Assembly (NCBI GenBank): GCA_000989185.1 | Contig: LBNX01000003.1 | Coordinates: 33,704 to 97,703 of the forward strand | Length of the DNA stretch: 64,000 nucleotides | Reading direction: 5' to 3' | DNA from: a candidate division TM6 bacterium GW2011_GWF2_28_16 | Lineage (GTDB): Bacteria; Babelota; Babeliae; Babelales; UASB340 | Part shown: piece after piece, positions 6,093 to 61,761 of the stretch | Layout: each line of letters begins with the position of its first letter | Numbering within the stretch: the stretch's first letter is position 1 | Translations under genes and position numbers: made by a program | The notes under the pieces: model-generated | What the model was told of the DNA's origin: nothing | Database searches by the model: none | Seen by the model: the letters and a program-made list of their open reading frames with translations, nothing else

Positions 6093-6100
6093 TTTAGTTT

Positions 6101-6122
6101 GCCCAGCGCATGTGCGCTGGGC
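6101..6122. terminator. GC-rich palindromic hairpin between convergent genes (also a repeat-family module)
   Basis: GCCCAGCGCA-tg-TGCGCTGGGC is a perfect palindrome. The near-identical GCCCAGTGCGTGTGCGCTGGGC recurs at 59223-59244. Confidence 0.6.
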
Positions 6123-6134
6123 AACAATTAATTT

Positions 6135-8079: not shown

Positions 8080-8169
8080 AAATATTATTTTATCTGGTTT
8101 ACATATTGTTTTAATATGATAGAACTATAACATATTTTTAATTAATAGTGAATTTTGAAGGGTTTTTAT

Positions 8170-9516
8170 ATGAATTTTAGATTAAGAATGGCGATAATAA
8201 TTTTATTAGGATTAAGTGGTTTTTTGGGAATTAAGGCATATTCTCATTGGGATTCTTATCATGATCTTGAAACGGCAAAAAAAGCGGTTAATAATGGGGC
8301 TGATATAAATGCTATAGATCAATATGGGCAGACGCCGTTGATGTTTGCTGCAGAAGATGGACTTGCGGATGTAGCAGAATTTTTAATAAAAAATGGTGCG
8401 GATGTAAATTTTAAAAATAATGAAGGAGAAACATCCTTAATGTTGGCGTGCTATTGTATTGATGATTATAATTATGATGGTCGTGTTCGTATTGTTGAGA
8501 TGTTAATAAAGAATGAGGCCGATTTACATGCAAAAAATGATTCGGGAAGGACAGCGTTAAGGTATGCGGCTGTATCCAATTTTGAATTGGATATCATTAA
8601 ATTATTAGTTGAAAAAGGTGCATTGGTAAATGATCCTCAATCTACTGGGTCTGCATTAATAGATTCACTTTATAACTATGCGATATGGGATATTGAAGAA
8701 TTTAGTGACAAAGATTACCGAAATATTAAGTTTTTGATAAAAAATGGAGCAGATGTAAATGCTAGATTTAAGCCTGATGAAGAATTGGTTTCTGTTCTTG
8801 ATATTGCTATTACTACTGGAAGATTAGAGTTAGTCGACCTGTTAATAGGGTATGGAGCCACATCCGAAATTAAAGCTCCGGATGCATTTGGTTGGGCGGT
8901 TATTCGCAAAAATATGAGTGATATTGAGAAATTGTTAGATCGTGATGGTTGTGATTTAATAACTCAAGAGGATAATTTGGGAATTACTGCTTTTGGTTAT
9001 GCTATTTTGTATAATCATAAAAATATTGTTGAGTTGTTTTTGAAAAAAGATCCAAATATAGTAAAAAATAATGTGGATCTATATTCTGATATTCTTACTT
9101 GGGCTTCTAAGCGGGGATACAAAGATATTGTTGAATCTTTGGTAAAAATAGATAAGAGTTTAACTTCTGTTGATGGTAGTGATGAGGCATTAATAAATGC
9201 TATAAAATTTGGACGGATCGATGTAGCTAAATTTTTGATTGAAAATGGTATTAATGTAAATGCAAAAAATTATGATGAAAAAACGGCATTAATGATGGCA
9301 TTAGAAAATGGTTTGTTTGATATTGCTAAGTTACTTATAAAAAATGGAGCAGATGTAAATAGAAAAGTTGTACTATATGGAGAAGAAATTTCTGCTTTAG
9401 GTTATGCTATTAGTTGGGCCATGCATAATAAAAATTATGAAATGGTTCAATTGCTTATAGTTTCTGGAGCAGATACAAATGTAGAAGCGGCAAAATTCTT
9501 GGTAATAAAGAAATAG
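8170..9516 (+). CDS. Ankyrin-repeat protein with N-terminal membrane/signal segment (3' end apparently frameshifted)
   Basis: There are multiple GADVN...G.T.L..A repeats. I prefer the ATG at 8170, which follows GAAGGGTTTTTAT, to the track start at 8155. The last repeat continues in the -1 frame to 9551. Confidence 0.85.
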   Translation: MNFRLRMAIIILLGLSGFLGIKAYSHWDSYHDLETAKKAVNNGADINAIDQYGQTPLMFAAEDGLADVAEFLIKNGADVNFKNNEGETSLMLACYCIDDYNYDGRVRIVEMLIKNEADLHAKNDSGRTALRYAAVSNFELDIIKLLVEKGALVNDPQSTGSALIDSLYNYAIWDIEEFSDKDYRNIKFLIKNGADVNARFKPDEELVSVLDIAITTGRLELVDLLIGYGATSEIKAPDAFGWAVIRKNMSDIEKLLDRDGCDLITQEDNLGITAFGYAILYNHKNIVELFLKKDPNIVKNNVDLYSDILTWASKRGYKDIVESLVKIDKSLTSVDGSDEALINAIKFGRIDVAKFLIENGINVNAKNYDEKTALMMALENGLFDIAKLLIKNGADVNRKVVLYGEEISALGYAISWAMHNKNYEMVQLLIVSGADTNVEAAKFLVIKK

Positions 9517-10212: not shown

Positions 10213-10265
10213 TTATAAAAAACGTGATTTTTATTATGTTTTACATATAAAATAGTTGCTTATGC

Positions 10266-10294
10266 TTGACAAATAGACATGATTTTAGTTGAAT
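10266..10294 (+). promoter_or_regulatory. Candidate sigma-70 promoter for tmRNA
   Basis: TTGACA (10266-10271), a 17-nt spacer, then TTGAAT (10289-10294), about 95 nt upstream of the mature tmRNA 5' end. Confidence 0.3.
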
Positions 10295-10300
10295 AAAAAT

Positions 10301-10367
10301 GATCCTCGATCCCTCGATACATCCCCCTTCGCTAAAGCTACGGAGGACACTCGGGACGAACGGGGCA
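10301..10367. repeat. GC-rich repeat, class C with embedded M core
   Basis: GATCCTCGATCCCTCGATACAT-cccCCTTCGCTAAAGCTACGGagg-ACACTCGGGACGAACGGGG. The arms match the mutL copy at 42921-42973. Confidence 0.8.
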
Positions 10368-10389
10368 CTTTAAAATCTTTGAAATTTAT

Positions 10390-10747
10390 GGGGGCGTCAC
10401 GGTTTCGACGTGATATTTGATGTTTTGAGAGCATGTCGAGTTTTGTATGGGAACTCGTAAAAAACATACAAAACAAATAAGTGCAGAACCTGTTTCCGCA
10501 TACGCTTAATAGTAGTTATTAAGTGACTTGTCAGTAAAGCATGTCTATCTGTGGAACTGACTCGTATTAAAAAGATAGAACTCGCTAAGTAGATTTTTTG
10601 GTTTTGTATTTAGCGAAAATCACTAAACTGGCTTTTATTTCAATCTATGCTCTTGAGGTGAAGTAAGAGTATATTCAAGAGATAAACATGTAGTGCTTGG
10701 AACTGATAGTGTTGCGGACATGGGTTCGACTCCCATCGCCTCCACCA
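10390..10747 (+). ncRNA. ssrA: tmRNA (SsrA)
   Basis: The 5' GGGGGCG pairs with CGCCTCC at the 3' end, including the G3:U wobble. GGTTTCGACG is present, as is the T-arm ATGGGTTCGACTCCCAT and an encoded ACCA. The candidate tag ORF is GCA GAA CCT GTT TCC GCA TAC GCT TAA TAG (10483-10512). Confidence 0.9.
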
Positions 10748-10788
10748 GTCTTCGCTCTAATGAGCTACGACTGGCGGGCCAGTACCGG
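10745..10788. repeat. CCA-anchored M-type hairpin at the tmRNA 3' end
   Basis: CCAGTC-ttcgctctaatgagctac-GACTGG, followed by cgggccagtaccgg. The first three bases are the tmRNA CCA. Confidence 0.75.
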
Positions 10789-10811
10789 AATTTTTTTTGA
10801 TATTAGTAGAA

Positions 10812-10858
10812 CCAGTGCGAAGACTGCCCGGCGAAGCCTTGGCGTAGTCGGGCCTGAG
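10812..10858. repeat. GC-rich repeat with M core
   Basis: ccagtgcgaagactgCCCGGC-gaagccttggcgta-GTCGGGcctgag. Confidence 0.7.
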
Positions 10859-10918
10859 TTTGACATTAAAATTTTGCTCGCGCTGTCTAGAAAAATATAG
10901 CTTTAAAATTACTAAAGT

Positions 10919-10990
10919 GAGCCTGCGCCTGTCCACCGTAGCTTTAGCGAAGGTTGGATGAGCGGGCGTATTTGAGGTAGCCCTGCGGCG
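10919..10990. repeat. GC-rich repeat, class A
   Basis: GAGCCTGCGCCTGTCCACCGTAGCTTTAGCGAAGGTTGGATGAGCGGGCGTATTTGAGGTAGCCCTGCGGCG. It is near-identical over the first ~45 nt to 45167-45282. Confidence 0.85.
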
Positions 10991-10991
10991 T

Positions 10992-11047
10992 AAATAATTT
11001 ATGGATGCACATCTATCTCCTTTTAAAATATAAAATTTCTAAAATAT
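10992..11047 (+). repeat. Decayed duplicate of the rarA promoter-proximal/5' coding region
   Basis: aaataatttatggatgcaca at 10992-11011 is identical to 12952-12971. Gapped similarity continues (atctcc/atctct, ttttaaaa, tataaaa, aaaatat). The copy reads ATG GAT GCA CAT ... TAA after 10 codons. Confidence 0.7.
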
Positions 11048-11165
11048 TTTATAAAAACTAATGTTTTTTGTTAAATAATGCATTTGCAGTCTGTAATATA
11101 TTTATGTAATATATATTACATGTGTTACAAATAGAAATGTATTTTTGATAAAAATGGAGGTTTTT

Positions 11166-12839
11166 ATGAATTTTTTAATAAAAACAGTGCAAATATTCAC
11201 ATTTTTGGCATTTTTTGGCCAAACTTTTGCCATGAATCAATTTTTAACTCGATCTGAGACTGTTAAAAATATTTTAGAAAGAAATAACGTTAAACACGAA
11301 ATATTACAAGAAGAACCCAAAGGTTCACCTTTGGGAGAATATTTATTTCTTGGAGTTAAAGAAGTTAATAAATTTGGAAAATTTAATATTGAAGGTGAAG
11401 TAATAGAAATAGAACATGACGATGAAAATGTTTTATTAAATATTGAAAGTAATTTTTTTGTCAAAATATCATCTGATGATCTTGAATTTCTTATAATAAA
11501 TAAAATTTTAGATGTTGAATGGAATGATTTAAGTAATATCGATAAAAATGAAAATAAAAAGTTTAACGTAAGTAATATTTTGTCTAAAGTTGGTAAAGGA
11601 TTAATCTATTATTGTTTGGCTTATAGTATTATTACATCAATACATAGCAAAACAAATGATAAAGTAAAAATGAATGAACAATCTTTTTCTTTTAGACCGA
11701 TTGAAATTAAAGATGATGAAAGAAGATTGAATTATACAATATTTAATAATAAGCATATGAGAGTATGTCATCAAGATACAGGTGAATGTGTTAATGTATT
11801 AGTCGACCATATTTTTGGTCAAACTGATTATTTTCCACAAACTTGTTGTGAAGTTAATAATGTTACTACATCTGTAGAATGTTCTACTTGTGAAAAATCA
11901 AAATTAAATAATTTGGATTTCGATTGGAATCAACGTCTTGACCAAACAGAACGACAACCATTAATGGATACAATAAAAAGTTTTATAAATAAAAATGAAG
12001 GTGATGATAATAAAATAAATTGTATGATTGCATTTCCTGATGATAGTAGTGAATCTGCAATTGAGACTTATAGAAATTGTTATGAATATACAGAACCATT
12101 GTTTTATGGTGGCGCTGGGATAAAATGCGATTCAATAATACATTCTAAAGATTTAGAAAAAAATTTAACATCTTATTATAAAAAATTTAATTTTAATCGG
12201 CCTATAATGATTGTTATTGGTAATATTCGTATAAATAATTTATTTGTGTGGGCTCCGGATTCAGATGAAAGATATAGAAGAGAATATGAAGGTTGTTACA
12301 AAAATATACCGAATGGTAAGATGCCAGTAAAAATACATATATCAACGAAAAACGAGGACGTTTGTTCGATTCCGCTACCTTTTATGTTGCATGAATTAGG
12401 CCATAATAAAGAAGAGGACGATAAATTGATGGAATATCTAGAACAACTACAAGATATTTCTTATAAAGAAAAATTCGAATTATTTAATAGAGAGATAAGA
12501 TCAGACTATTTAGGATTGATTACATCTGAGCCAGAGTCAAGAGTTGCTGCGCTTAAATCTTTTTTTTCATACTTATTTAATGATTTTTGTTTACGGAAAA
12601 ATTTGTATGATTTTGATAATTTAAATGAGGCATTTAAGTCTATATTTGGATATAATCCAAATAAGGGTGATGTTGAGAAGCTTTTAAATTGTGATAGGAT
12701 TACTTACATAGATTCAAATGAAGATGCTCGGGATCCTCATCCAGATATTTTTGATAGAATACAACGGAATTTAGAATATATATACAAAATTGGTGCGGCT
12801 GAAAGATATTTGTTAAATAATGCAAAATCTGAAAATTAA
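11166..12839 (+). CDS. Orphan secreted protein with Cys-rich region and a lone HELGH motif
   Basis: The ATG at 11166 follows GGAGGTTTTT. It has the signal-like MNFLIKTVQIFTFLAFFGQTFA and an HEXXH motif (MLHELGHN). I recognise no wider family. Confidence 0.6.
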   Translation: MNFLIKTVQIFTFLAFFGQTFAMNQFLTRSETVKNILERNNVKHEILQEEPKGSPLGEYLFLGVKEVNKFGKFNIEGEVIEIEHDDENVLLNIESNFFVKISSDDLEFLIINKILDVEWNDLSNIDKNENKKFNVSNILSKVGKGLIYYCLAYSIITSIHSKTNDKVKMNEQSFSFRPIEIKDDERRLNYTIFNNKHMRVCHQDTGECVNVLVDHIFGQTDYFPQTCCEVNNVTTSVECSTCEKSKLNNLDFDWNQRLDQTERQPLMDTIKSFINKNEGDDNKINCMIAFPDDSSESAIETYRNCYEYTEPLFYGGAGIKCDSIIHSKDLEKNLTSYYKKFNFNRPIMIVIGNIRINNLFVWAPDSDERYRREYEGCYKNIPNGKMPVKIHISTKNEDVCSIPLPFMLHELGHNKEEDDKLMEYLEQLQDISYKEKFELFNREIRSDYLGLITSEPESRVAALKSFFSYLFNDFCLRKNLYDFDNLNEAFKSIFGYNPNKGDVEKLLNCDRITYIDSNEDARDPHPDIFDRIQRNLEYIYKIGAAERYLLNNAKSEN

Positions 12840-27221: not shown

Positions 27222-28574
27222 ATGTTTTTTCGTATTATCAAGTTTTTTTGGCCAGATTTATCTAATGAAGAGATAAAAAAATATGGAATGCTTTCCATGG
27301 CTTTCTTTTTCATTATTGGAGCATACTGGTTATTGCGCCCATTAAAAGATGGTTTCTTTTTTAGTGCAGTAGGTGGAAAATATCAACCAACAGCAAAAAT
27401 GCTTTCAGTTCTTATTGTTGGTATTTTGGTAATGGTTTATTCAAAGCTTGTAGATATAGTCGAGAAACATAAATTATTTTATATTTTGGGTTCTATATAT
27501 ACAGTTTTGTTTGCAATAGTTGCTTACGTAGTAAACTTCCCAGTTGAAGGACCGGGCGCTTTAAACCCATCAATCTTAAGATTTTTTGGTTGGGCTTCTT
27601 ACTTTATTATAGAAAGTTTTGGTTCTATAGTAGTTGCACTTTTTTGGTCTTTTACTGCTAGCGTTTCTGATGCTAAATCTGCAAAAAAAGGTTATTCATT
27701 AGTTATAGCCGGTGCTCAAATTGGCGCAATATTTGGACCCTTTATGGCAACATATGCAAAAAGCTGGGGTTTAATGCCGTTATTTTTAATTGGTACAGTT
27801 TCTATAATGCTTATGATGTTTATCATAAACCGTTTTATGGCTGTAACTCCAAAAGAACAATTAGAAATAAATAAACAAGAAGTTAAATCTGAATCTGCTC
27901 CAAAAACAGGCTTTTTAGAAGGTTTAAAACTTTTATTAACAAGACCATATTTATTAGGAATATTTGCAGTAGTTACAATTTATGAAGTTGTTGGAACTAT
28001 TGTTGACTATCAAATGAAGATGCAAGCACAAGCATTGCCTCAGTATGCATCAAGAGAATCTTTAACAGCATTCTTGGGTGTATTTGGTATGTCTGCAAAT
28101 GCATTAGCATTCTTTATGGCTCTTTTAGGTACAGGTTATATGATGAAAAAACTTGGCCTAAGATTTTGTTTATTAACATTCCCTATTGTTTTGGGTCTTG
28201 CTGTTGCTGGTTTATATGCTGCATATACTTGGGGTCATTTTAATCCAATGATGCTATTGTGGGCAACCTTTGGTGTTATGATGATTGCAAAAGGTTTAAG
28301 CTATGCATTAAATAATCCTGCAAAAGAAATGATGTATATTCCAACAAGTAAAGATGTAAAATTCAAATCTAAAGGTTGGATTGATATGTTTGGCTCAAGA
28401 AGCTCAAAAGCTGTTGGTGCAGCATTTACCGATTCATTAAAAGGTAATGCATATAATTTAATGGCTTATGGAACAATTTTATCTTTAGGCTTTATTGGTG
28501 TTTGGATTGTTGTTGCATTCTTTGTAAGCAATAAATTTGAACGTCTTACAGCAGAAGGCAAAATTGTTGAATAA
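27222..28574 (+). CDS. NTT/Tlc-family nucleotide (ATP/ADP) antiporter, paralog 1
   Basis: 450 aa and polytopic. The blocks LLRPLKDGFFF, ESFGSIVVALFWSF...SAKKGY and NNPAKEMMYIP...KFKSKGWIDMFG match Chlamydia/Rickettsia Npt/Tlc proteins as I remember them. Confidence 0.75.
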   Translation: MFFRIIKFFWPDLSNEEIKKYGMLSMAFFFIIGAYWLLRPLKDGFFFSAVGGKYQPTAKMLSVLIVGILVMVYSKLVDIVEKHKLFYILGSIYTVLFAIVAYVVNFPVEGPGALNPSILRFFGWASYFIIESFGSIVVALFWSFTASVSDAKSAKKGYSLVIAGAQIGAIFGPFMATYAKSWGLMPLFLIGTVSIMLMMFIINRFMAVTPKEQLEINKQEVKSESAPKTGFLEGLKLLLTRPYLLGIFAVVTIYEVVGTIVDYQMKMQAQALPQYASRESLTAFLGVFGMSANALAFFMALLGTGYMMKKLGLRFCLLTFPIVLGLAVAGLYAAYTWGHFNPMMLLWATFGVMMIAKGLSYALNNPAKEMMYIPTSKDVKFKSKGWIDMFGSRSSKAVGAAFTDSLKGNAYNLMAYGTILSLGFIGVWIVVAFFVSNKFERLTAEGKIVE

Positions 28575-28728: not shown

Positions 28729-30075
28729 ATGTTTACACGATTTTTTAAATTTTTCGGTAAAGATTTAAGTAGTAAAGAAGTTGAAAAATTTAGTCTTCTT
28801 GCTTTAGCATTTTTTTTTACAGTTGGTGGCTACTGGCTTTTAAAAACATTAAAAGACGGTTTCTTTTTTAATGTCGTTGGTGGTCAATTTCAGCCTAGAG
28901 CAAAAATGCTCTCACTTGTTGTTATTTCTATATTAGTACTTGTTTATAGTAAACTTGTAGATATATTTCATAGACATCAATTATTTTATATTTTTGGAAC
29001 TTTTTTTGCAGTTTTTTTTGCACTTGTATCAATATCTTTGGCTTTACCTGTGCATAGTTTTGGCCCGGCTTATTTGCAATATATAAAAATTTTAGGATGG
29101 GCTTCGTACGTTATGGTCGAAAGCTTTGGATCTATTATGATTGCATTATTCTGGTCTTTTGTAACAAGTATTACAGATACAGAATCTGCAAAGCGTGGTT
29201 ATTTTTTAATTGTTGCAGGCGCTCAACTTGGTGCAATATTTGGTCCCTTTTTATCTTGGAATGCTAAATTTTTTGGATTACCAATATTGTTCGCTATGGC
29301 AACAGCATGCATATTAGCTTTAATTTTAGTCATAAAAAAATTTATTTCAGTTACTCCACAAGAAGAACTTATTGGAGGTAAACAAGATATAAGACCTCAG
29401 GAAAAGACAGGCTTTTGGCAAGGTTTAAAACTTATTACAACCAAACCATATTTATTTGGGATTTTATTATTAGTTATTTTTTATGAAACAGTTACAACTA
29501 TAGTTGATTATCAAATGAAAATTCTAGCACAAGCATTACCTGAGTATGCAACTAAAGAAGCTTTGACATCTTTTATGGGTATATTTGGTATGGCGACCAA
29601 TGGTTTATCTTTATTAATGGCTCTTTTTGGTACAGGTTATTTAATTAAAAAATTTGGGTTACGTTTTTGTTTGTTGGCATTTCCGGTTGCTGTAGGGTTT
29701 GCTATAGCTGCATTATATGGAGTTATTAAATTAGATTTTTTAACTACTCAAAGTATGTTATGGGCAACTTTTACAGTTGTAATTATAGCCAAAGGCTTAA
29801 GTTATGCTCTTAATAATCCTGCAAAAGAGGTTATGTATATTCCAACAAGTAGAGACGCTAAATTTAAAGCTAAAGGTTGGATAGATATGTTTGGTGCCAG
29901 AGGTGCTAAAGCAATAGGTTCTGGGTTTAATGAATATTTAATTAGAACTCCAGATGTTTTATTATATCTTGGTTCTATTTTGTCTTTGGGTTTAATAGGT
30001 ATATGGATTATAGTGGCTCTTCTTGTGGGTAATAAATTTAATAGATTAATAAAAAACAATCAGATAGTCGGATAA
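28729..30075 (+). CDS. NTT/Tlc-family nucleotide antiporter, paralog 2
   Basis: 448 aa, colinear with paralog 1 (LLKTLKDGFFF, ESFGSIMIALFWSF...SAKRGY, NNPAKEVMYIP...KFKAKGWIDMFG). Confidence 0.75.
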   Translation: MFTRFFKFFGKDLSSKEVEKFSLLALAFFFTVGGYWLLKTLKDGFFFNVVGGQFQPRAKMLSLVVISILVLVYSKLVDIFHRHQLFYIFGTFFAVFFALVSISLALPVHSFGPAYLQYIKILGWASYVMVESFGSIMIALFWSFVTSITDTESAKRGYFLIVAGAQLGAIFGPFLSWNAKFFGLPILFAMATACILALILVIKKFISVTPQEELIGGKQDIRPQEKTGFWQGLKLITTKPYLFGILLLVIFYETVTTIVDYQMKILAQALPEYATKEALTSFMGIFGMATNGLSLLMALFGTGYLIKKFGLRFCLLAFPVAVGFAIAALYGVIKLDFLTTQSMLWATFTVVIIAKGLSYALNNPAKEVMYIPTSRDAKFKAKGWIDMFGARGAKAIGSGFNEYLIRTPDVLLYLGSILSLGLIGIWIIVALLVGNKFNRLIKNNQIVG

Positions 30076-37914: not shown

Positions 37915-39150
37915 ATTTACCAAAACTTCTGTTTGTTTAATTTTTACACTTTCACCTGTTTGCATATTTTTAATAGTAACAGTACCGGTGTTTTGTTCAT
38001 CTTCGCCCAAAATTAATACTTTTTTGGCTCCCATTTTATTTGCTTTTTTCATCATGTTTTTAATTGAGCTGCCTTCAAGTAGAACATCTATACTTATTTT
38101 ATTTGCTATTAATTCATCTGCAAGTAATAAAGCTAAATTGTGTTGCTCTTTTTCCATGGGTAATATTAAATAAAGAGCTTTTTGCTCTGGCAAATTTAAA
38201 TTTTGTATATTTTGTTCTACAAGTAATAAAAGTCTACCCAAACCAATGGCAGCACCAACAGATGGAAAATTTTCTGGAGCGCCTACATCTTTGCCCAACA
38301 AATATCTACCACCACCACAAAATGCACTTTGTGCTCCTAAAAATGGCGAAGCAAATTCAAAAACTATTTTATTATAGTAATCAAGCCCTCTAACTAATTT
38401 AAAATCTATTACAAAATTTATAGATAATATATTTAATTTTTCTTGTAACTCTTGCCATTCTGTTGCACATTCTGTGCATAAAAAATCTGTAAGTTTTGGT
38501 GCATCTTTATATGCTTTTTGACAAGCTTCGTTTTTGCAATCAAATACTCGTAAAATATTTGTTTCTTTTCTTGTTTTACAGGTATCACAAATTTGGGAAT
38601 CTATATTATCCAAAAATTTTTTAAGAGCTATTTTGTGTTTTTGTCTATCTTGACTGCAACCTAAATAATTTAATTTTAAAACGTAACTTTCAAGATTTAA
38701 TTCTTGGCTAAAAAAACTATCTAACATTTTTATAAATAAAACATCTTGAGCTATAGAGTTAGAATTTATAACTTCAAAATTTAATTGATCAAACTGGCGC
38801 CAGCGGCCTTTTTGAGGTCTTTCGCGCCTGAACATTGGGCCATAATTAAAAACTTTGTATGGTTTTTCTTCTATTTTATTTTCATAATAAGCTCTTATAA
38901 CGCCAGAGGTTGCTTCTGGACGCAAGCAAATACTATCTTCTTCATTTTCTGCAGGGAATGTATACATTTCTTTAGAAACTACATCTGTATTTGAACCCAA
39001 TGAATGAATAAATAGCTTAGTATATTCAAGAACTGGAGTTTCTATATGTTTAAAATTATATAAATTTATATAATTTTTTAATTTTTCTAAAACAAAATTT
39101 TGTAGATTTAAATCTAATAAATCTTGTGTCCCTCTAACTCTATTTATCAT
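37909..39150 (-). CDS. hisS: Histidyl-tRNA synthetase
   Basis: 413 aa with class II motifs, including FRRERPQKGRWRQFDQ and GGGRY. Confidence 0.92.
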   Translation of the reverse strand: MINRVRGTQDLLDLNLQNFVLEKLKNYINLYNFKHIETPVLEYTKLFIHSLGSNTDVVSKEMYTFPAENEEDSICLRPEATSGVIRAYYENKIEEKPYKVFNYGPMFRRERPQKGRWRQFDQLNFEVINSNSIAQDVLFIKMLDSFFSQELNLESYVLKLNYLGCSQDRQKHKIALKKFLDNIDSQICDTCKTRKETNILRVFDCKNEACQKAYKDAPKLTDFLCTECATEWQELQEKLNILSINFVIDFKLVRGLDYYNKIVFEFASPFLGAQSAFCGGGRYLLGKDVGAPENFPSVGAAIGLGRLLLLVEQNIQNLNLPEQKALYLILPMEKEQHNLALLLADELIANKISIDVLLEGSSIKNMMKKANKMGAKKVLILGEDEQNTGTVTIKNMQTGESVKIKQTEVLVNL

Positions 39151-39242: not shown

Positions 39243-40256
39243 ATGCAAAAAACGGTTTTAGTGTTGGGCGGTGCTGGTTATATAGGTTCAAATACTGCTT
39301 ATTTATTATCACAAAAAGATTATAACGTAATAATTTTAGATAAATTAATTTATAACCAAAAATTTGATCATAATTTTGCCAAATTAATTATTGGTGATTT
39401 TGCAGATGAAAAAATACTTGAAAATATTTTTAAAACTTACAAAATAGACGCTGTTTTACATTTTGCAGCTTTGATAGAAGTTGGTCTTTCTGTTATAAAT
39501 CCAGTGCAATTTTATAATAATAACGTGATTAAAACTTTAAAATTTTTAGATATTATGCTTTCTTATAATATTAAAAAATTTATATTTTCTTCTAGTTGTG
39601 CCGTATATGGTAACCCTGTACAAATACCAATACCAGAAGAACATAAATATAATCCTATAAGCCCGTATGGTAAAAATAAATTAATTATAGAATATGCACT
39701 TCAAGATTATGCGCATGCGTATAATTTAAATTATATTTCTTTAAGATATTTTAATGCAGCGGGAACTGGCGTCATCCCGGACACTGATCCGGGATCTAAA
39801 CCAAAAATATTTTTAGGTGAACAACATATACCGGAAACACATATAATACCGTTATTATTGCGTGCTATAAAAAATAATAAAATATTTACAATTTTTGGTG
39901 ATAATTATAATACTCAAGATGGAACCTGCGTACGTGATTATATACATGTGCAAGATTTAGCACATGCACATTATTTGGCGCTTGAATATTTAATTGGTAA
40001 CAATAATAACATTAATAATTCGCAAGTCTTTAATTTAGGTACAGGTTTGGGGTATTCTGTAAAAGATTTAATATTATGTGCACAAAAAATAACAGGTAAA
40101 AAAGCAAATATACAAATTTGTCCAAGACGCGAAGGTGACGTAGATACACTTGTTGCAGATAATAAAAAAATAAAGAATACTTTAGGGTGGAGTCCAGAGT
40201 ATTCAAGTTTAGAAAATATAATGCGTAGTGCATGGGAATGGGAAAATAGGAGTTAA
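39243..40256 (+). CDS. galE: UDP-glucose 4-epimerase
   Basis: I prefer the ATG at 39243. It has GGAGYIGS and YxxxK (SPYGKNK). It carries a 27-nt GC-rich palindrome in-frame. Confidence 0.9.
   Translation: MQKTVLVLGGAGYIGSNTAYLLSQKDYNVIILDKLIYNQKFDHNFAKLIIGDFADEKILENIFKTYKIDAVLHFAALIEVGLSVINPVQFYNNNVIKTLKFLDIMLSYNIKKFIFSSSCAVYGNPVQIPIPEEHKYNPISPYGKNKLIIEYALQDYAHAYNLNYISLRYFNAAGTGVIPDTDPGSKPKIFLGEQHIPETHIIPLLLRAIKNNKIFTIFGDNYNTQDGTCVRDYIHVQDLAHAHYLALEYLIGNNNNINNSQVFNLGTGLGYSVKDLILCAQKITGKKANIQICPRREGDVDTLVADNKKIKNTLGWSPEYSSLENIMRSAWEWENRS
39771..39797. repeat. B-short GC-rich palindromic repeat inserted in-frame in galE
   Basis: GTCATCCCGG-acactga-TCCGGGATCT codes VIPDTDPGS. Compare 43001-43030. 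Confidence 0.75.
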
Positions 40257-41623: not shown

Positions 41624-43708
41624 TTATAATTTTCTTTTAAACTGTTTTTCAATAAAATCTTTATTGAGTATCCAGGTTGTTGGCCTGCCGTGTGGGCAGG
41701 TCAACAAATTTTCTGTTTTATATAAGTTATTAACAATTTCTTGCATTTGCGTTTCAGTTAAAATATCGCCTGCTTTAACTGCAGATTTGCAAGCAATTTG
41801 TGCATGAATTTTGTCGTTTAATTTTTTTCTAAAAAGTTCTTGATCTAGATTTTCAAATTCTCTAATAAATTCTAAAATTTCAAAAATTAATTCTTTTAAA
41901 GATTGATTTTGAATTCCTGCAGGGCTAGATTTTATGGCTAGTTGGCTTTTGCCAAAAACTTCGATATTTATTCCCTGATTAGCTAAAAACTCTTGAGCTA
42001 ATTTTATTTGTTCAAGTTCAAGATTATTTAAATTTATTATTTCTGGAAACATTAATTTGATTCCAGATTTAGTTTCAAAATTTTTAGTTATATTATCGTA
42101 AATTATTCTTTCGTGTGCTGCATGCTGGTCGATAATAATTAAATTTGTTTCGCTCTGAGCGATAATATACGTTGTTAAAAATTGGCCTATTATTTTAAAG
42201 GATCTAGATCCCCAGCCTACGCCCTTCGTGGCTTCCAACTTCGCCAAGGCTTCGATGGACACGTCGGCGGGCAGGCCGGTTTCTCTGGTAGGGATAACAA
42301 ACTCTGTTTGAGTTGGATTTATATTGCTGGATCCTGAATCAAGTTCAGGATGACAAACGGGGTGGGCAATATAACTATTATATTTAAAAGTACGCGACTG
42401 AGATCCCCAGCCTTCGCCCTTCGTGGCTTCCAACTTCGCCAAGGCTTCGATGGACACGTCGGCGGGCAGGCCGGTTTCTCTGGCCGGGATGACAGCGCTA
42501 AGAGTTGTGTTGAGCAAGCCAGAAGACATACTAGGGCTGACTATATCTGTGTTAAGGTTGGTTTCTCTGGTCGGGATGACATTGCCAATAAAACTGCGAA
42601 CGTTTGCATCCAGAGTTTCTTTAATAATTCTTTGCAATAAATTTGTTACAGTATGTGGCTTTAAAAAGCGAACTTCTTCTTTTTTGGGATGAACATTAAT
42701 ATCAACAAAATTACTTGGTGTGTTTATAAAAATAAAACTAGCCGGGAATTTTGCCGGAGGTAAAACTCCAGTGTAGCCTTTAAAGAGTGCCTTATTTAAT
42801 TCTGTGTCTTTTATATAACGATTATTAACAAAAAAGAATATTTGGTGTTTGCCATAACGCCATAGGTTGTGATTACTGGTAAGACCAGAGATTGAGATTG
42901 ATGTATTGTTTTTATTACTAGATCCTGATCCCTCGATACATTTTTCTTGCGAAAAACACTCGGGATGAACGGGTTTAGGAGTACAAGTTGTGGGTTGGTT
43001 GTCATCCCGGGCTTGACCCGGGATCTCTCCATTATTTATCTCTAGCATGCTTTCGCTTAAGCTATGCCCCCAGAGTTGGGCAACGCGATCTTTAATGTTT
43101 TGTGTAGCAGGCGCATTAAGTATAATTTTGTCGTCTTTAAAAAGTTTAAAATTAATATTAATATTGCTTAAACAAAATGCATTAAAAATATTTAATATCT
43201 GGTTAAATTCAGTTTCGTCTTGTTTTAAAAATTTTTTACGAACAGGTAAATTAAAAAAAAGATCATATATTTGTAAATCTGTTCCTATTGGACATGAAAC
43301 ACTTTCTTGAGAGTGTAATTTATTTTCGTAATAAATTATTTTGGTACCAACTTCTTGATTGTTAGTTTTAGTTATTAAAGTTACTTTGCTAACAGCACTA
43401 ATGCTTGCAAGAGCTTCACCTCTAAAACCAAAAGATGCTATATTTTCTAGGTCATTTATATTTTCTATTTTACTTGTTGCGTGCTTTTCAAAACACAATA
43501 AAGCATCTTGTTCGCCCATGCCAGAGCCGTTATCTACAAGTCTAATTAAACTCTTGCCAGAATCTTTTATATATAAATTTATTTGAGTGCTATTGGCATC
43601 TATAGAATTTTCTATTATTTCTTTAACTATATTTGCTGGACGCTCGACAACTTCGCCAGCTGCAATTTTTGCAGCCTGCTCAGGTGCTAATATTTTTATC
43701 TTGTTCAT
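41624..43708 (-). CDS. mutL: DNA mismatch repair protein MutL (linker expanded by repeat insertions)
   Basis: It has the GHKL motifs (ERPANIVKEIIENSIDA, DNGSGM, GFRGEAL) and the C-terminal domain (IIGQFLTTYII...DQHAAHERI). The ORF is intact at 694 aa. Confidence 0.92.
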   Translation of the reverse strand: MNKIKILAPEQAAKIAAGEVVERPANIVKEIIENSIDANSTQINLYIKDSGKSLIRLVDNGSGMGEQDALLCFEKHATSKIENINDLENIASFGFRGEALASISAVSKVTLITKTNNQEVGTKIIYYENKLHSQESVSCPIGTDLQIYDLFFNLPVRKKFLKQDETEFNQILNIFNAFCLSNININFKLFKDDKIILNAPATQNIKDRVAQLWGHSLSESMLEINNGEIPGQARDDNQPTTCTPKPVHPECFSQEKCIEGSGSSNKNNTSISISGLTSNHNLWRYGKHQIFFFVNNRYIKDTELNKALFKGYTGVLPPAKFPASFIFINTPSNFVDINVHPKKEEVRFLKPHTVTNLLQRIIKETLDANVRSFIGNVIPTRETNLNTDIVSPSMSSGLLNTTLSAVIPARETGLPADVSIEALAKLEATKGEGWGSQSRTFKYNSYIAHPVCHPELDSGSSNINPTQTEFVIPTRETGLPADVSIEALAKLEATKGVGWGSRSFKIIGQFLTTYIIAQSETNLIIIDQHAAHERIIYDNITKNFETKSGIKLMFPEIINLNNLELEQIKLAQEFLANQGINIEVFGKSQLAIKSSPAGIQNQSLKELIFEILEFIREFENLDQELFRKKLNDKIHAQIACKSAVKAGDILTETQMQEIVNNLYKTENLLTCPHGRPTTWILNKDFIEKQFKRKL
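42207..42298. repeat. 92-nt GC-rich repeat unit, copy 1, in-frame in mutL
   Basis: gatccccagcctacgcccttcgtggcttCCAACttcgccaaggcttcGATGGacacgtcggcgggcaggccggtttctctggtagggataac. It translates as IPTRETGLPADVSIEALAKLEATKGVGWGS. Confidence 0.9.
42326..42362. repeat. B-type hairpin repeat, in-frame in mutL
   Basis: gctgGATCCTGAAtcaagTTCAGGATgacaaacgggg codes HPELDSGSS. Confidence 0.8.
42402..42493. repeat. 92-nt GC-rich repeat unit, copy 2, in-frame in mutL
   Basis: It differs from 42207-42298 at 4 of 92 positions and lies 195 nt away. It translates as IPARETGLPADVSIEALAKLEATKGEGWGS. Confidence 0.9.
42560..42580. repeat. Solo terminal fragment of the 92-nt unit, in mutL
   Basis: ggtttctctggtcgggatgac matches the end of the 92-nt units and codes VIPTRET. 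Confidence 0.7.
42921..42973. repeat. Class C GC-rich repeat, in-frame in mutL
   Basis: GATCCTGATCCCTCGATACAT-ttttcttgcgaaaa-ACACTCGGGATGAACGGG has arms matching 10301-10367. Confidence 0.8.
43001..43030. repeat. B-short palindromic repeat, in-frame in mutL
   Basis: GTCATCCCGG-gcttgac-CCGGGATCTCTCC codes GEIPGQARDD. Confidence 0.8.
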
Positions 43709-45103: not shown

Positions 45104-45140
45104 TTACTGGATGCTGAAATAAATTCAGCATGACAAAGGG
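45104..45140. repeat. B-type hairpin repeat
   Basis: ttactgGATGCTGAAataaaTTCAGCATgacaaaggg. It is the reverse complement of the 51576 copy apart from one compensated stem pair. Confidence 0.85.
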
Positions 45141-45166: not shown

Positions 45167-45282
45167 GAGCCTGCGCCTGTCCGCCGTAGCTTTAGCGAAG
45201 GCTGGACAAGCAGGCGAATTTATGGTAGCCCAGTGGCAGCCTGCCCGCCATAGCCTTGGCGACGGCTAGGTAAGTCCTGGGC
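45167..45282. repeat. Class A GC-rich repeat (long form, two M cores)
   Basis: GAGCCTGCGCCTGTCCGCCGTAGCTTTAGCGAAGGCTGGACAAGCAGGCG...GGTAGCCCAGTGGCAGCCTGCCCGCCATAGCCTTGGCGACGGCTAGG... Confidence 0.85.
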
Positions 45283-47811: not shown

Positions 47812-49365
47812 CTAATTTTGTGCTTGATAATTTTTTATAGTTTCAAAATCTTTTTTGATAGAATGCTCACTTGGAGCCCAATCTAAAAGCTTAGATTTGA
47901 TTGAGTTAACAAAGTTTTTTGATATTGCAACTTTGTTTTCTAATAATTTTATTTTTTCTTTATGCTTGAATACATAAACTTTTAAATTTTTACTTGTAAG
48001 TCTTATGTTTATATCTAAATCTTGTGTATTGTTAGAAATATTTTCTATAGATTTTAAAATTAATGGTGTAAAAATAACAGAAGGTAAACATTCTAAAGGT
48101 TCGCTAGTTTTGTCTTTTAATTTATTCCACGAAACAAACCATAATTCTTTGTGCGTAGGATCTTTTGATTTTTTGCAAAACATTCTACTTGGAGAAAATA
48201 GTTTTTGCCAAAAGCTTTCATAATGTCTGTTTGGTTGAGTTGTAGTGGTATCAAGGCTTAATACCTGCTGTGTATTTACTATTACCTTTTGCATTTCTCT
48301 ATCTGTCATAATTTTTAATTGAACAAATTTTGGTTTATCTTTTATTTTTGTAGTATCAATATTTTTTATTATTTTAAATCTTCGTTTACTGTCTTTTTTT
48401 GTAGAAAACACGTCTAGATCTTGTATTACGTCTTCTTGTGAATATATGCTATAAATATTTTTAAAAAAATTATTTAAAATAAAGCTTTCTGTTTCTGGCT
48501 GCACTGGGCATCCAAACATTAAAAGTTCATTTACTATTAAATTTTTATTTTCTGGAAAATAATCATATTTTTTTTGATTAGTATAAGCTTTAATGGCACT
48601 TTTTTTAGGTAAAGCTTTAATAATTTCGTACATACATTTTAATGATTCATGTTCGTCATTATTAATAGTATTTTTTAATATTAAATCTATATTTTCAAAA
48701 TTATTAATAACAGTATGCACTGCAGCTAAATTTAATGCTAAGTTACCACCATGACTATGAGTTATAATTCTAATTTCGGGAATTTTCTCAAAAGATTTAT
48801 AATTTTCGAGTTCTTCTGAAAGTGAATTATAAAAACGTACAGCTTCTAATCTTCTTCTATTTTGACTTAATAAACCAGACCAGCCAAAGGTATAAAAGTT
48901 GTTATTAATATTTTTATTATTTTCTTGATCAAATTGTTCATAAGCTTTAATTATTGGATAAGCTGCAAAGTGAGTATTTGATGTTGATGCCAAATCAAAA
49001 GTAGGTTCAATTTTAATTAAACCTTTTTGCATAATTGTTTGGCTGCTATAAAAATCTGGATTTTTTCGCATTTTTGATACGGTTTTTTTGTATTTGGTGT
49101 TATCTACATTATCGTCTAAAACTTTAAATAAGTTCATTAATCCAATAACAGATCCAAAAGAACCATGAGTAAAAACAGTTATTTTTTCTTGAGTGTATTT
49201 TTTGGGAACAATATTTGTGATTTTTGGTTGTTTTTTATAATAATTAAATAAAATAACACCAAGTAATATTGTAAAAAGAAGTAAAAAAGATGTAAAAAAC
49301 ACTATAATTCGATGTTTTTTCCCCATTTTTTTATTAATTTTTATATCTTTTTTACTGTTTTTCAT
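47812..49365 (-). CDS. Membrane-anchored alpha/beta-hydrolase (lipase/esterase-like)
   Basis: I prefer the ATG at 49365, which follows GGAGA at 7 nt (MKNSKKDIK...). It has an N-terminal TM, HGSFGS and a nucleophile-elbow-like THSHGGN. The track N-terminus (to 49482) is read from a repeat element. Confidence 0.5.
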   Translation of the reverse strand: MKNSKKDIKINKKMGKKHRIIVFFTSFLLLFTILLGVILFNYYKKQPKITNIVPKKYTQEKITVFTHGSFGSVIGLMNLFKVLDDNVDNTKYKKTVSKMRKNPDFYSSQTIMQKGLIKIEPTFDLASTSNTHFAAYPIIKAYEQFDQENNKNINNNFYTFGWSGLLSQNRRRLEAVRFYNSLSEELENYKSFEKIPEIRIITHSHGGNLALNLAAVHTVINNFENIDLILKNTINNDEHESLKCMYEIIKALPKKSAIKAYTNQKKYDYFPENKNLIVNELLMFGCPVQPETESFILNNFFKNIYSIYSQEDVIQDLDVFSTKKDSKRRFKIIKNIDTTKIKDKPKFVQLKIMTDREMQKVIVNTQQVLSLDTTTTQPNRHYESFWQKLFSPSRMFCKKSKDPTHKELWFVSWNKLKDKTSEPLECLPSVIFTPLILKSIENISNNTQDLDINIRLTSKNLKVYVFKHKEKIKLLENKVAISKNFVNSIKSKLLDWAPSEHSIKKDFETIKNYQAQN

Positions 49366-49390
49366 ACTTTTTCTCCAGATTTTTATTACA

Positions 49391-49476
49391 CGAACGTTTC
49401 GTTCGCCCTGCCTGTGCGCCATAGTCTTAACGACGGCGTAAGCGTAGTCGAAGGGCAAACAGATCAGGGATCTCTC
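49391..49476. repeat. GC-rich repeat in the 5' region of the hydrolase gene
   Basis: cgaacgtttcgttcgccctgcctgtGCGCCatagtcttaacgacGGCGtaagcgtagtcgaagggcaaacagatcagggatctctc. It shares cgttcgccctg with 59278-59327 (reverse complement) and the GGGATCTCTC end with the mutL units. Confidence 0.75.
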
Positions 49477-49743
49477 TTCCAATATTTATCTTATATTTAT
49501 CTTATTAAATAGGGCTAAAAATGCAACCGGTATATTATTATTTGTCAATTTTTTGTATTAAAAATTTTAAAATAGATTCTGGAAGCAATTTTTTGTTTAG
49601 TCTCTGCCATAGCGTATATACAATATAAGGAGGGCATTTGAAAATTTATTTTTAAAGTGCTAATATTTAGGCCTATATGGGATGTTATTTAGGGGTTTTT
49701 AGGGCCATTTTTAATTATGGCAATTTTAATTGGGGGGCTTTTT

Positions 49744-51575: not shown

Positions 51576-51608
51576 TTGTCATCCTGAATTTATTTCAGGA
51601 TCCAGTAA
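51576..51608. repeat. B-type hairpin repeat
   Basis: ttgtcATCCTGAAtttatTTCAGGATccagtaa. Confidence 0.85.
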
Positions 51609-54583: not shown

Positions 54584-54609
54584 GTCACCTCGGGCTGTGA
54601 CCCGTGGTC
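54584..54609. repeat. Degenerate B-short repeat
   Basis: GTCACCTCGGGCTGTGACCCGTGGTC compared with GTCATCCCGGGCTTGACCCGGGATC (mutL copy). Confidence 0.5.
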
Positions 54610-59192: not shown

Positions 59193-59244
59193 GAGCCTGC
59201 TCAAGCAGGCGGCTTTGAGGTAGCCCAGTGCGTGTGCGCTGGGC
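59193..59244. repeat. Class A GC-rich repeat (short form)
   Basis: GAGCCTGCTCAAGCAGGCGGCTTTGAGGTAGCCCAGTGCGTGTGCGCTGGGC. Confidence 0.8.
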
Positions 59245-59277
59245 TAATTTGTTTTGTATTAAAGGGCCTATATTTTT

Positions 59278-59327
59278 CGGCAATGCCCATTCGACTTCGC
59301 AACAAGTTGCTTCGCTCAGGGCGAACG
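59278..59327. repeat. GC-rich repeat related to 49391-49476
   Basis: cggcaatgcccattcgacttcGCAACaaGTTGCttcgctcagggcgaacg. Confidence 0.6.
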
Positions 59328-61382: not shown

Positions 61383-61424
61383 GCGAAAGCTGGCTGCGCC
61401 ATACGAAGCCTTGGCGAAGTATGG
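61383..61424. repeat. CCA-anchored M-type hairpin at the 3' end of tRNA-Ser(TGA)
   Basis: On the + strand it reads gcgaaagctggctgcgCCATAC-gaagccttggcgaa-GTATGG. The last TGG is the complement of the tRNA CCA. Confidence 0.8.
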
Positions 61425-61513
61425 TGGAGAGAGTGAGATTCGAACTCACGATTCCTGTTTCCAGGAATAACGGTTTTCAAGACCGCCGCATTCAACCACT
61501 CTGCCATCTCTCC
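61422..61513 (-). tRNA. tRNA-Ser (TGA)
   Basis: Reverse complement GGAGAGATGGCAGAGTGGTTGAATGCGGCGGTCTTGAAAACCG...long variable arm...GAGTTCGAATCTCACTCTCTCCACCA. Confidence 0.9.
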
Positions 61514-61610
61514 GGTTATTTTTTTAGGTTGAGATATATTTCAAAAGTTTTTGTGAAGATAAATTTGCATCTAGGCTAATAGATAGCGTTAATTTAATTT
61601 TAAATACCAA

Positions 61611-61688
61611 GTCCAGGTCCGCCGTCGCTCTGGCGAGCTTCCACCGACGCTAAAGCTATGGTGGACATGATGGCGTGACAGCCTACGC
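61611..61688. repeat. GC-rich repeat with M core between the two tRNA-Ser genes
   Basis: gtccaggtccgccgtcgctctggcgagcttCCACCgacgctaaagctatGGTGGacatgatggcgtgacagcctacgc. Confidence 0.75.
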
Positions 61689-61721
61689 AATAGTGCTAAC
61701 AAAGTTTTTATAATATAAATA

Positions 61722-61761
61722 CCGGTCCTGGCATGCCAGCCGTAGCTTTAGCGTAGGCTGG
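61722..61761. repeat. CCA-anchored M-type hairpin at the 3' end of tRNA-Ser(GCT)
   Basis: ccggtcctggcatgCCAGCC-gtagctttagcgta-GGCTGG overlaps the tRNA CCA complement. Confidence 0.8.

Follow-up and report, generated by a model that had tools for sequence, protein, structure and literature searches.

The window analyzed here, a 64,000-nt stretch of DNA from candidate division TM6 (Dependentiae) bacterium GW2011_GWF2_28_16 (28% GC), carries short GC-rich patches that an earlier sequence-only reading had sorted into recurring hairpin modules named M, A, B, B-short, and C. We consider it probable that these patches are hairpin repeats that act as single strands, similar to repetitive extragenic palindromic (REP) sequences and to the SRM hairpins of small nucleases, and that module M is a new hairpin type and the cognate of one clade of small GIY-YIG nucleases. 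M is best read as a second hairpin type that would follow the same logic as the NTS/SRM hairpins, differing from them in its structure, in its tRNA-end context, and in its wide, sequence-invariant distribution. The earlier observation of a modular repeat family was confirmed, and its interpretation was partly supported: the likeness to REPs and to Rickettsia palindromic elements (RPEs) was right, while one module family proved to be already described and another to be far more widespread.

Structure and strand asymmetry of module M

Module M has a 17-nt core (CGTAGC-YTTR-GCGAAGG) inside a covarying stem that stands behind a conserved unpaired CYTG tag, and the conserved unit reads C-Y-T-G-Y-C-C-K-C-core-M-G-G-R. 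Beyond the tag come a variable, covarying stem of 5 to 6 bp and an internal loop of invariant GTA/GAA, and then an inner stem that is rich in GC and capped by a YTTR loop. In an alignment of 89 sequences (80 from elsewhere and 9 from the window), 92.6% of the cells are consistent with pairing in the hairpin. The covariation score was 0.406, compared with 0.148 for shuffled alignments (none of 500 reached 0.406) and no more than 0.10 for slid controls. The Y/R pair that closes the loop covaries without exception (50 sequences with C-G, 39 with T-A). The 5′ tag is conserved as C-Y-T-G and has no partner on the 3′ side, and the window copies align to the wider consensus with this unpaired tag included.

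The two strands of M are not equivalent. The strand that reads CGTAGC has 24 G-T wobbles versus 8 A-C mismatches, and it folds slightly better as DNA; the Ssn model is likewise strand specific (PMC11893778). M is thus a strand-specific tag joined to a single-strand hairpin, with no dependence on transcription, which is the combination shown by the REP/RAYT (REP-associated tyrosine transposase) and NTS/Ssn systems.

Eleven window matches to the pattern TTCGCYAARGCTWC were found with up to 2 mismatches (2.0 expected; none of 100 shuffles reached 11). A covariance model of M, a check that the sequence-only reading had proposed, was built mainly on copies from other genomes and finds 12 copies in the window at an E value of <1e-3, of which 3 were outside the training set. 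The copies are split evenly between the strands (6 on each).

Whether the modules are an undescribed family, as had been supposed, receives a divided answer. B and B-short fit published CGTC/TGTC-tagged REPs (see below), while for M we found no Rfam family, no paper, and no match to the SRM motif. In Rfam searches of the window, only the tmRNA and the tRNAs scored above the gathering threshold and no family was assigned to any module; a permissive search (E ≤ 10) of positions 10250 to 11050 returned nothing overlapping any M copy. The literal M core sequence appeared in no paper in our literature search, nor did we find anything relevant on palindromic repeats in Dependentiae. The published SRM motif is matched neither by the M consensus nor by a window copy of M, and the M stem does not open with AT. 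BLAST searches with the M consensus gave no match in cultured phage records and weak chance-level matches only in plasmids, the 35-nt query being low powered at the E-value limits used. Resemblances to 5S rRNA, signal recognition particle RNA, the tRNA D-arm, K-turns, attC sites, and IS91 target sites were considered and dropped; the strings they share with M are short, and none of them explains the data.

M in other bacteria

The exact M core (CGTAGCYTTRGCGAAGG) is present in 84 IMG/VR viral contigs of 30 to 71% GC and in at least 120 loci of species-representative genomes. Among the matches listed, the hosts cover at least 12 bacterial phyla and include Verrucomicrobiota and other groups of the Planctomycetes-Verrucomicrobia-Chlamydiae assemblage, Planctomycetota, Acidobacteriota, Bacteroidota, many Patescibacteria, Alpha- and Deltaproteobacteria, Bdellovibrionota, Nitrospirota, Elusimicrobia, and Omnitrophota-like lineages, with two isolates (Cerasicoccus arenae and Maricaulis sp. 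MIT060901). The core is invariant from genomes of 28% GC to genomes of 76% GC, and complementary flanks accompany nearly all matches; the two or three exceptions look like chance. M is pan-bacterial, not peculiar to this AT-rich genome, and far wider in distribution than was supposed. Since REP-type repeats are normally lineage specific, an invariant core of this kind is unusual and suggests that a sequence-specific partner travels from phylum to phylum.

M is also multicopy and clustered elsewhere, for example with 7 copies within 1.4 kb in a Cyclobacteriaceae genome. The adjoining 8.7 kb of the Dependentiae genome, just outside the window, holds no elements, which again indicates a clustered distribution. 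A tRNA gene lies within 150 nt of 11 of the 124 species-representative matches listed. M overlaps the tRNA CCA in a Sphingomonadales genome, in a Patescibacteria locus (L120), apparently in a second one (L156), and in one viral contig; in the window it begins at the CCA end of the tmRNA, of tRNA-Leu, and of both tRNA-Ser genes. A tie between M and any one neighboring gene family was considered and dropped, as the 129 flanking open reading frames (ORFs) are diverse housekeeping genes.

The elements differ in presence between relatives. The GalE-like epimerase of the window has a 10-aa insert (TGVIPDTDPG) that carries a B-short hairpin and is missing from the orthologue in a syntenic relative (L002). 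MutL is 694 aa long in the window and ~590 to 650 aa in relatives, with window-specific inserts at two variable sites where the relatives have other inserts of repeat-type peptides (e.g., CHPE and CIEGS). Conversely, tRNA-Gln is followed by M in L002 and not in the window.

The tRNA-end placement bears on a different explanation, in which M is a functional RNA hairpin (a 3′ end, a terminator, or a processing or stability signal) that is kept by selection at each site and is not spread as DNA. Besides the four tRNA and tmRNA genes of the window, M starts at CCA ends in other phyla. T-rich tracts occur within ~20 nt downstream, many copies sit at gene ends, the stem covaries strongly, and the wobble excess on one strand fits single-strand folding. 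The GUA/GAA internal loop could form noncanonical pairs in RNA. Action of REPs on 3′ untranslated regions (UTRs) is also known (PMC3733652). However, M is oriented at random with respect to the genes on either side (20 >M>, 22 <M<, 17 >M<, and 13 <M>); of the window copies, 5 run with local transcription and 7 against it, and the copies that abut tRNAs occur in both orientations across phyla. Copies also lie in frame in MutL or are nested in the loops of other repeats, their presence varies among relatives, and no Rfam family covers them. A simple intrinsic-terminator test (GC stem with a T-run within 0 to 2 nt) failed as well, reporting no M near the tmRNA and tRNA genes, where the nearest T-runs are ~20 nt downstream. 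We regard an RNA function as an unlikely account of M.

Several further features of M were recorded in other genomes. Six AT-rich contigs with the exact core (L012, L023, L042, L045, L065, and L081; putatively viral, four of them IMG/VR contigs labeled GVMAG, for giant-virus bins) have M copies with AT-rich stems (ATATTC/GAATAT) and a conserved 5′ flank of their own, GAAGTTTTYYGATT; the copies checked are intergenic, and two neighboring ORFs match DUF5764. An early impression from AT-rich viral contigs that M has a constant orientation (7 of 7) was abandoned after the wider counts showed no bias. At six mostly acidobacterial loci (L089, L149, L168, L170, L171, and L192), an inverted, diverged copy often precedes M, in the form CCGCC-TCCGC-TGAA-GCTAC-GGCGG-ACC-GC-CGTAGC..., which resembles REPINs and the window doublet at 61603-61689. 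Tandem arrays of 7 to 9 nt (e.g., CAACCTG and TGTTCAG) flank M in several phyla and in one viral contig (L186, 416-454; L204, 420-470; L176, 5347-5385; L128, 3651 and 5534; L046, 4109 and 4600). Under a strict test, such arrays are present at 7 of 164 M sites and 8 of 1,951 control sites, a difference of ~10-fold; slippage at the hairpin and repeated insertion and excision are both possibilities.

M and small GIY-YIG genes at tRNA 3′ ends

A partner was first suggested by three loci in which M has a small GIY-YIG ORF next to it. In a Bacteroidetes locus (L122, 7230-7780), tRNA-Ser precedes M, which is followed by a GIY-YIG gene of ~78 aa, inverted M, and a 20-nt copy of the tRNA 3′ end. A search with the L122 protein found 415 close homologues (60 to 82% identity), the named ones mostly from Bacteroidota, and many of them lie on short contigs or on many contigs. 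For two of these homologues (P0125 and P0128), M stands on both sides of the gene at 18 loci wherever the upstream flank was recovered, and 10 of the 18 have a second, tandem cassette, beside tRNA-Ser(gga). Lacibacter luteus has tRNA-Ser(cga), M, the gene, inverted M directly after the stop codon, the tRNA 3′-end copy, and a further M, while Chryseolinea soli has tRNA-Pro, M, and the GIY-YIG gene. In a further metagenome-assembled genome (L313 and L314), the gene stands between tRNA-Ser and an inverted M, after which 20 nt of the tRNA 3′ end recur without a change. In the Dependentiae relative L002, M and an M-like hairpin come after tRNA-Gln and ahead of a GIY-YIG gene, whose product is 46% identical to the L122 protein and has a C-terminal motif in common with it.

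Inverted M repeats flank the gene in L122, in the P0125 and P0128 loci, and in L310, L313, and L314. The inverted M is placed 0 to 10 nt past the stop codon in independent loci, the M copies are repeated along with the gene in tandem cassettes, and a tRNA 3′-end copy follows the cassette in four loci. The M-flanked nucleases are 78 to 84 aa long and have PF01541 only, with weak, subthreshold GIY-YIG matches in NCBIfam. No SRM hairpin was found near the nuclease genes in these loci. This pattern looks like repeated insertion into the tRNA T-arm. The cassettes, which in Bacteroidota stand immediately downstream of tRNA-Ser or tRNA-Pro genes, can be located at L293 1350-2260, L310 1300-1900, and L313 1330-1830 in addition to L122. 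The copied tRNA end after the Bacteroidota cassettes comprises the last ~20 nt (TCGAATCC...CTCCGC), and the number of cassettes varies, with two in tandem in some populations and one in others; a freshwater Cyclobacteriaceae population has either one or two in tandem.

The idea that M accompanies GIY-YIG genes at large was rejected. At 80 loci of distant relatives (33 to 64% identity), no M adjoins the gene, and the 386 kb covered contain 2 M matches, both ~2 kb away in one locus; the link of M is therefore limited to the L122-type clade. Two distant small GIY-YIG genes (L209, 4641-5253; L208, 4968-5361) are flanked by inverted repeats of other sequence, which fits the published idea of many nuclease-hairpin pairs.

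The gene found between inverted M copies also bears on whether M is mobilized by an HUH tyrosine transposase (RAYT or IS200/IS605-like), the GIY-YIG association then being incidental. The layout of hairpin and 5′ tag is REP-like, the core contains GTAG, and doublets exist both in the window (61603-61689) and in Acidobacteria. Moreover, Y1 transposase classes with "atypical secondary structures" have been described in Planctomycetes, Acidobacteria, and Bacteroidetes (PMC6006769), phyla that carry M. A RAYT-type transposase, for which the sequence-only reading had suggested a search, was not found: six-frame translations of the window and other loci (~2.1 Mb, containing no whole genomes) gave no HUH/Y1 motif, and the gene associated with M elsewhere is the small GIY-YIG nuclease. 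One locus of the Acidobacteria-type TIRYT class was examined (L287), and it has palindromes of its own and no M. In addition, the GTAG of M lies within the hairpin as an internal loop and not at its 5′ foot, where the unpaired tag is CYTG. Mobilization by an HUH enzyme appears very improbable.

The other explanation to be weighed is that M and the GIY-YIG cassette are unrelated and both home to tRNA 3′ ends, with M as a landing site or hotspot that accumulates by recombination or gene conversion. Both are enriched beside tRNAs, the distant GIY-YIG relatives carry other inverted repeats, and most M copies have no nuclease nearby (127 of 129 neighboring ORFs). The ~10-fold excess of heptamer arrays at M likewise suggests local slippage or recombination. 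Against this stand the fixed position of inverted M just after the stop codon in independent loci, the coduplication of M with the gene, the recurrence of the layout at four tRNA species in two phyla, and a 17-nt core whose invariance across phyla needs a sequence-specific partner. We give an accidental meeting of two elements about as little credence as an RNA function.

Several results weigh against the pairing of M with the nuclease and its spread as single-stranded DNA (ssDNA). M and the nuclease cassettes both favor tRNA 3′ ends, so their association may partly reflect a shared site. The 18 P0125 and P0128 loci are not independent of each other, one close homologue (L312) has no M, and the 80 distant GIY-YIG loci lack it beside the gene. 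The window and the adjoining 8.7 kb contain no GIY-YIG gene, and the cognate enzyme of this genome is thus unseen. No target-site duplication was seen around solo copies, including the GalE and tRNA-Gln sites, and M has no orientation bias relative to genes or to the single replication arm in the window.

Proposed mechanism

We hypothesize that M is the cognate hairpin of the L122-type nuclease clade and that solo M copies are nonautonomous derivatives, spread or maintained in trans in the manner of REPs by RAYTs and of NTS by SsnA. The hairpins would act as ssDNA, each with its unpaired, strand-specific 5′ tag. Copies may survive in the loops of other hairpins, in frame in tolerant loops and linkers of proteins, and at tRNA and tmRNA 3′ ends; survival in other hairpins' loops would explain the nesting described below, and at tRNA and tmRNA ends the hairpins may double as 3′-end structures. 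The repeating unit would be a tRNA 3′ end, M, the gene, and an inverted M ending in the tag. The cassette would insert into the conserved tRNA T-arm (GGTTCGAATCC), and the tRNA would be restored by the 3′-end copy that the element brings along. Composites such as module A, the C shell with M, and the 94-nt unit of MutL may have formed when one element inserted into the hairpin loop of another and the resulting composite was then copied. Recognition of M by the nuclease and the route by which copies multiply are both deduced from these arrangements.

Taken to its full extent, the proposal is more tentative. M may be an uncatalogued hairpin, present throughout bacteria and in some viral contigs, that is recognized by a separate clade of miniature GIY-YIG nucleases acting on ssDNA. 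These nucleases would be encoded on a mobile cassette of ~380 bp (M, the gene, and inverted M) that would enter the conserved T-arm and 3′ end of tRNA genes and restore the tRNA, and that could have shed solo M copies to colonize intergenic DNA, other hairpins' loops, and protein linkers in more than 12 phyla. We consider this extended version possible and somewhat doubtful.

Modules B and B-short and the CGTC-tagged repeats

On sequence and layout, B and B-short fit the known CGTC-REP/NTS/SRM hairpins and are not new. The pattern GTCATSCYGR-N3-9-YCRGSATC has five matches in the window (39771, 42330, 43001, 45110, and 51578), where 0.00 are expected. CGTC-tagged REPs have an unpaired CGTC, TGTC, or CCTC tag, an 8- to 9-bp stem opening with AT, a loop of 4 to 5 nt, and a CCA-type tail (PMC3733652), and the family includes Neisseria dRS3 as well as Rickettsia RPE-4 and RPE-6 (Di Nocera et al. 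2013, PMC3733652). No transposase for this family came to light in that study, which also described REPs in frame within genes, notably those of DNA repair (PMC3733652). Ssn proteins, small GIY-YIG nucleases with a single domain, bind the extended dRS3 (NTS, CGTCATTCCCGCGMAVGCGGGAATCYRG) and the related SRM hairpins (Chenal et al. 2025, PMC11893778). Ssn binds the hairpin as ssDNA, on one strand only, and cuts just upstream of it, and the ssn genes are typically flanked by NTS/SRM repeats (PMC11893778). SsnA is encoded by 81% of the genomes that are rich in SRM.

All five B and B-short copies carry the 5′ tag, as CGTC at 39771 and as TGTC at 42330, 43000, 45110, and 51578. Their stems (ATCCCGG(A/G), ATCCTGAA, and ATGCTGAA) have 8 to 9 pairs, and the loops measure 3 to 7 nt depending on the innermost pair. 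The tail is ATCCAG in all three B copies, in line with the ATCYRG of NTS, while the two B-short tails, ATCTA and ATCTC, are not of the CCA type. The published SRM search motif, HGTCWYN(0-2)YYVSBRHN(0-5)WNVSBRGN(0-2)RNCYNB, has one exact match in the window (43000-43028); the copy at 39771 is off at the last position (by eye), and the three B copies are unmatched. Neither the window nor the adjoining 8.7 kb has a small GIY-YIG (ssn) gene flanked by B or B-short.

Nested modules and the feature list of the window

All named modules were located where the sequence-only reading had placed them or within a few bases (Table 1). The nesting that it described was borne out by the aligned C shells, A copies, and 94-nt mutL units, and its count of at least 23 copies in 64 kb is fair, our own being ~25. 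The C shells can be aligned at either end, and the difference between the two is confined to the center, where one has an M core and the other a mini-hairpin, as had been noted. The A copies occur with or without M in their loops; those at 10919 and 45167 share 86% identity across 72 nt, with M in the same loop. The mutL unit, with B-short-like termini around M, was likewise recovered, at a length of 94 nt. Near-identical element copies can lie far apart within the window. The proposed resemblance to REPs, bacterial interspersed mosaic elements (BIMEs), and RPEs is apt in that the elements are short hairpins, clustered and nested, and the placement at gene ends, beside tRNA and tmRNA genes, and in frame in tolerant coding loops (GalE and MutL) holds as well.

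The statement that nearly every GC-rich patch is built from the modules was too strong. A sliding-window GC analysis gives ~45 GC islands; conserved coding sequence accounts for those at 41666-41708, 43633-43665, and 38790-38830, and ordinary gene-end hairpins account for those at 15260, 35194, and 51555. An unclassified GC-rich module (GCTCAGGGCGAACGG / CCGTTCGCCCTG...) is common to the window (59298-59327 and 49388-49460) and to L002 (262-353 and 11075-11141), where one copy is inside mutL. In three loci from Alphaproteobacteria and other Pseudomonadota (L142, L198, and L206), M lies within another palindromic repeat, GGGGAGGGGGACC...GGTGGAGGGGC, and nesting of hairpin families therefore occurs in GC-rich genomes too.

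Table 1. Hairpin modules and associated features, in window coordinates
Feature	Position	Strand	Context and remarks
Solo second hairpin of module A (GCCCAGCGC-ATGT-GCGCTGGGC)	6093-6130	.	Between convergent genes; aligns to 59222-59255
Module C shell with M in center	10301-10367	+	Upstream of tmRNA
M in C shell	10316-10354	-	Upstream of tmRNA; 45.1 bits
tmRNA gene (context)	10390-10747	+	3′ CCA is the first three bases of the next hairpin
M, enlarged loop	10739-10781	-	Starts at tmRNA CCA end (CCAGTC-TTCGC..GCTAC-GACTGG); 26.7 bits, E=3e-4; outside training set
M	10820-10858	+	38.5 bits
Module A composite	10919-10990	+	M in loop of GCCTGC..GCGGGC hairpin, then GAGGTAGCCC
M in module A	10925-10963	+	Covariance model
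B-short (CGTC-ATCCCGGA..TCCGGGAT)	39771-39796	+	In frame in GalE-like epimerase
94-nt composite, first	42206-42299	-	MutL linker; B-short-like termini around M; translated in frame
M in first MutL 94-nt unit	42228-42266	-	Covariance model
Module B (TGTC-ATCCTGAA..TTCAGGAT-CCAG)	42330-42354	-	Inside MutL
94-nt composite, second	42401-42494	-	96% identical to first unit
M in second MutL 94-nt unit	42423-42461	-	Covariance model
Third, solo terminal segment of 94-nt unit (GGTTTCTCTGGTCGGGATGACA)	42559-42580	-	Encodes VIPTRETN; read from sequence
Module C shell with AT-rich mini-hairpin in center	42921-42973	+	In frame in MutL
B-short (TGTC-ATCCCGGG-CTTGA-CCCGGGAT-CTCT)	43000-43028	+	In frame in MutL; exact SRM-motif match
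Module B	45110-45134	-	Intergenic, upstream of bamA
Module A composite, one M in each of two hairpin loops	45167-45282	+	
M pair in module A composite	45173-45211, 45237-45275	+	Covariance model
Degenerate M	49408-49446	+	Inside GTTCGCCCTG..GAAGGGCAAAC hairpin, near start of ORF 47812-49482; weak, 13.5 bits, E=0.45
Module B	51578-51602	+	75 nt upstream of tRNA-Gln
Degenerate B-short-like hairpin (GTCACCTCGGG..CCCGTGGTC)	54584-54609	+	Read directly; no B/B-short pattern match
Module A, empty loops (no M)	59193-59244	+	After M48 peptidase gene
M	61392-61430	+	Starts at CCA end of tRNA-Ser (61422-61513, -)
Doublet	61603-61689	.	M-like hairpin with enlarged loop plus M (61634-61672, -); between two tRNA-Ser genes
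M	61729-61767	+	Starts at CCA end of tRNA-Ser (61759-61850, -)
M, enlarged loop	63726-63769	-	Starts at CCA end of tRNA-Leu (63648-63734, +); 27.8 bits; outside training set

Source genome and assembly checks

The window MutL has its nearest relatives among Dependentiae/Babeliales proteins, and the RNA genes of the window are one tmRNA and six tRNAs. An independent ENA assembly is identical base for base across 7.7 kb, the tmRNA locus included, and the GC-rich patches are therefore not an assembly artifact. Strain polymorphism was discarded, as other assemblies of the same population are identical. A Logan contig from this population (L289) starts at window position 10746, the junction of the tmRNA 3′ end and the M hairpin, which suggests that hairpin repeats break short-read assemblies. 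The ORF next to the tmRNA locus (11145-12839) is an orphan whose sole match, at 100% identity, is a protein of the source genome itself, and hence the locus could not be compared with relatives. No transposase or nuclease gene was present among the 20 window ORFs scanned.

Two other sets of repeats in the window were recorded. An ankyrin-repeat protein (8155-9516) adjoins the tmRNA locus, and its internal repeats account for repeat family D5; such proteins are typical of amoeba-associated intracellular bacteria. Two adjacent paralogues of ~450 aa each (27222-28574 and 28729-30075; 71 to 76% DNA identity; repeats D1 to D4) lie just upstream of tRNA-Met and have no relation to the hairpins.

Comparison with known hairpin systems

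Among the closest known systems is Ssn with its NTS/SRM hairpins (PMC11893778), which likewise has hundreds of clustered copies, inverted copies around a small single-domain GIY-YIG gene (NTS-ssnA-NTS), and enrichment in symbionts; B and B-short have the NTS layout. Unlike the NTS/SRM hairpins, M fails the SRM motif, has no AT at the stem start, and contains the GTA/GAA internal loop. The M cassettes stand at tRNA 3′ ends, whereas tRNA is not mentioned in PMC11893778, and the M core is constant across phyla, whereas that study describes many coevolving enzyme-hairpin pairs. NTS is also rarely found within genes (2%), while several window copies are in frame.

With the CGTC-REPs, B and B-short share the tag, the 8- to 9-bp stem starting with AT, and the short loop, and the three B copies share the CCA-type tail. 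Further likenesses are hosts that include obligate intracellular bacteria and in-frame insertion into genes, notably those of DNA repair. They differ in that the window has 5 B and B-short copies only and no head-to-head dimer, and in that the B-short tails are CTA or CTC and not CCA. Dependentiae are not among the phyla listed in PMC3733652 for either repeat type, and M falls outside the four CGTC families as textually defined there.

REP/REPIN-RAYT systems and BIMEs resemble the window elements in having 5′-tagged ssDNA hairpins, clusters and mosaics, a single-copy enzyme gene between inverted copies, and possible secondary roles at 3′ UTRs. The gene flanked by M, however, encodes a GIY-YIG protein and not an HUH tyrosine transposase, and REPs are lineage specific whereas the M core is invariant. 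RPEs are similar as palindromic repeats of a reduced, AT-rich intracellular genome with in-frame insertions (here GalE and MutL). RPE-1 and similar elements are ~100 to 150 bp long and lineage specific, whereas the window units measure 25 to 40 nt and form composites by nesting, and M is pan-bacterial. Set beside miniature inverted-repeat transposable elements, the GIY-YIG cassettes show inverted M ends and then the ~20-nt copy of the tRNA 3′ end. GC-rich palindromes also occur in the AT-rich mitochondrial genomes of fungi (the GC clusters of yeast and the PstI palindromes of Neurospora, which flank tRNA genes), occasionally in coding sequence. They offer an analogy only, being organellar and unrelated in sequence, and we know of no link between them and a GIY-YIG gene of this type.

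Significance

These results tie the repeat content of a reduced, AT-rich Dependentiae (TM6) genome to the recently described Ssn/SRM nuclease-hairpin systems and to the older literature on CGTC-REPs and RPEs, and they add a further phylum of intracellular bacteria to those with in-frame "protein-coding palindromes." The tRNA-M-GIY-YIG-M arrangement provides a candidate partner for M, and cultured carriers exist both of the cassette (Lacibacter luteus and Chryseolinea soli) and of M (Maricaulis sp. MIT060901 and Cerasicoccus arenae). If the proposed pairing is true, the site-specific ssDNA nucleases that are sought as tools would gain a new specificity from this clade, and the repeats would account for breaks in the assembly and for spurious small ORFs in many metagenome-assembled genomes. 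On the extended version of the proposal, M and its nuclease would be the first hairpin-nuclease pair of this kind with one invariant target common to phyla.

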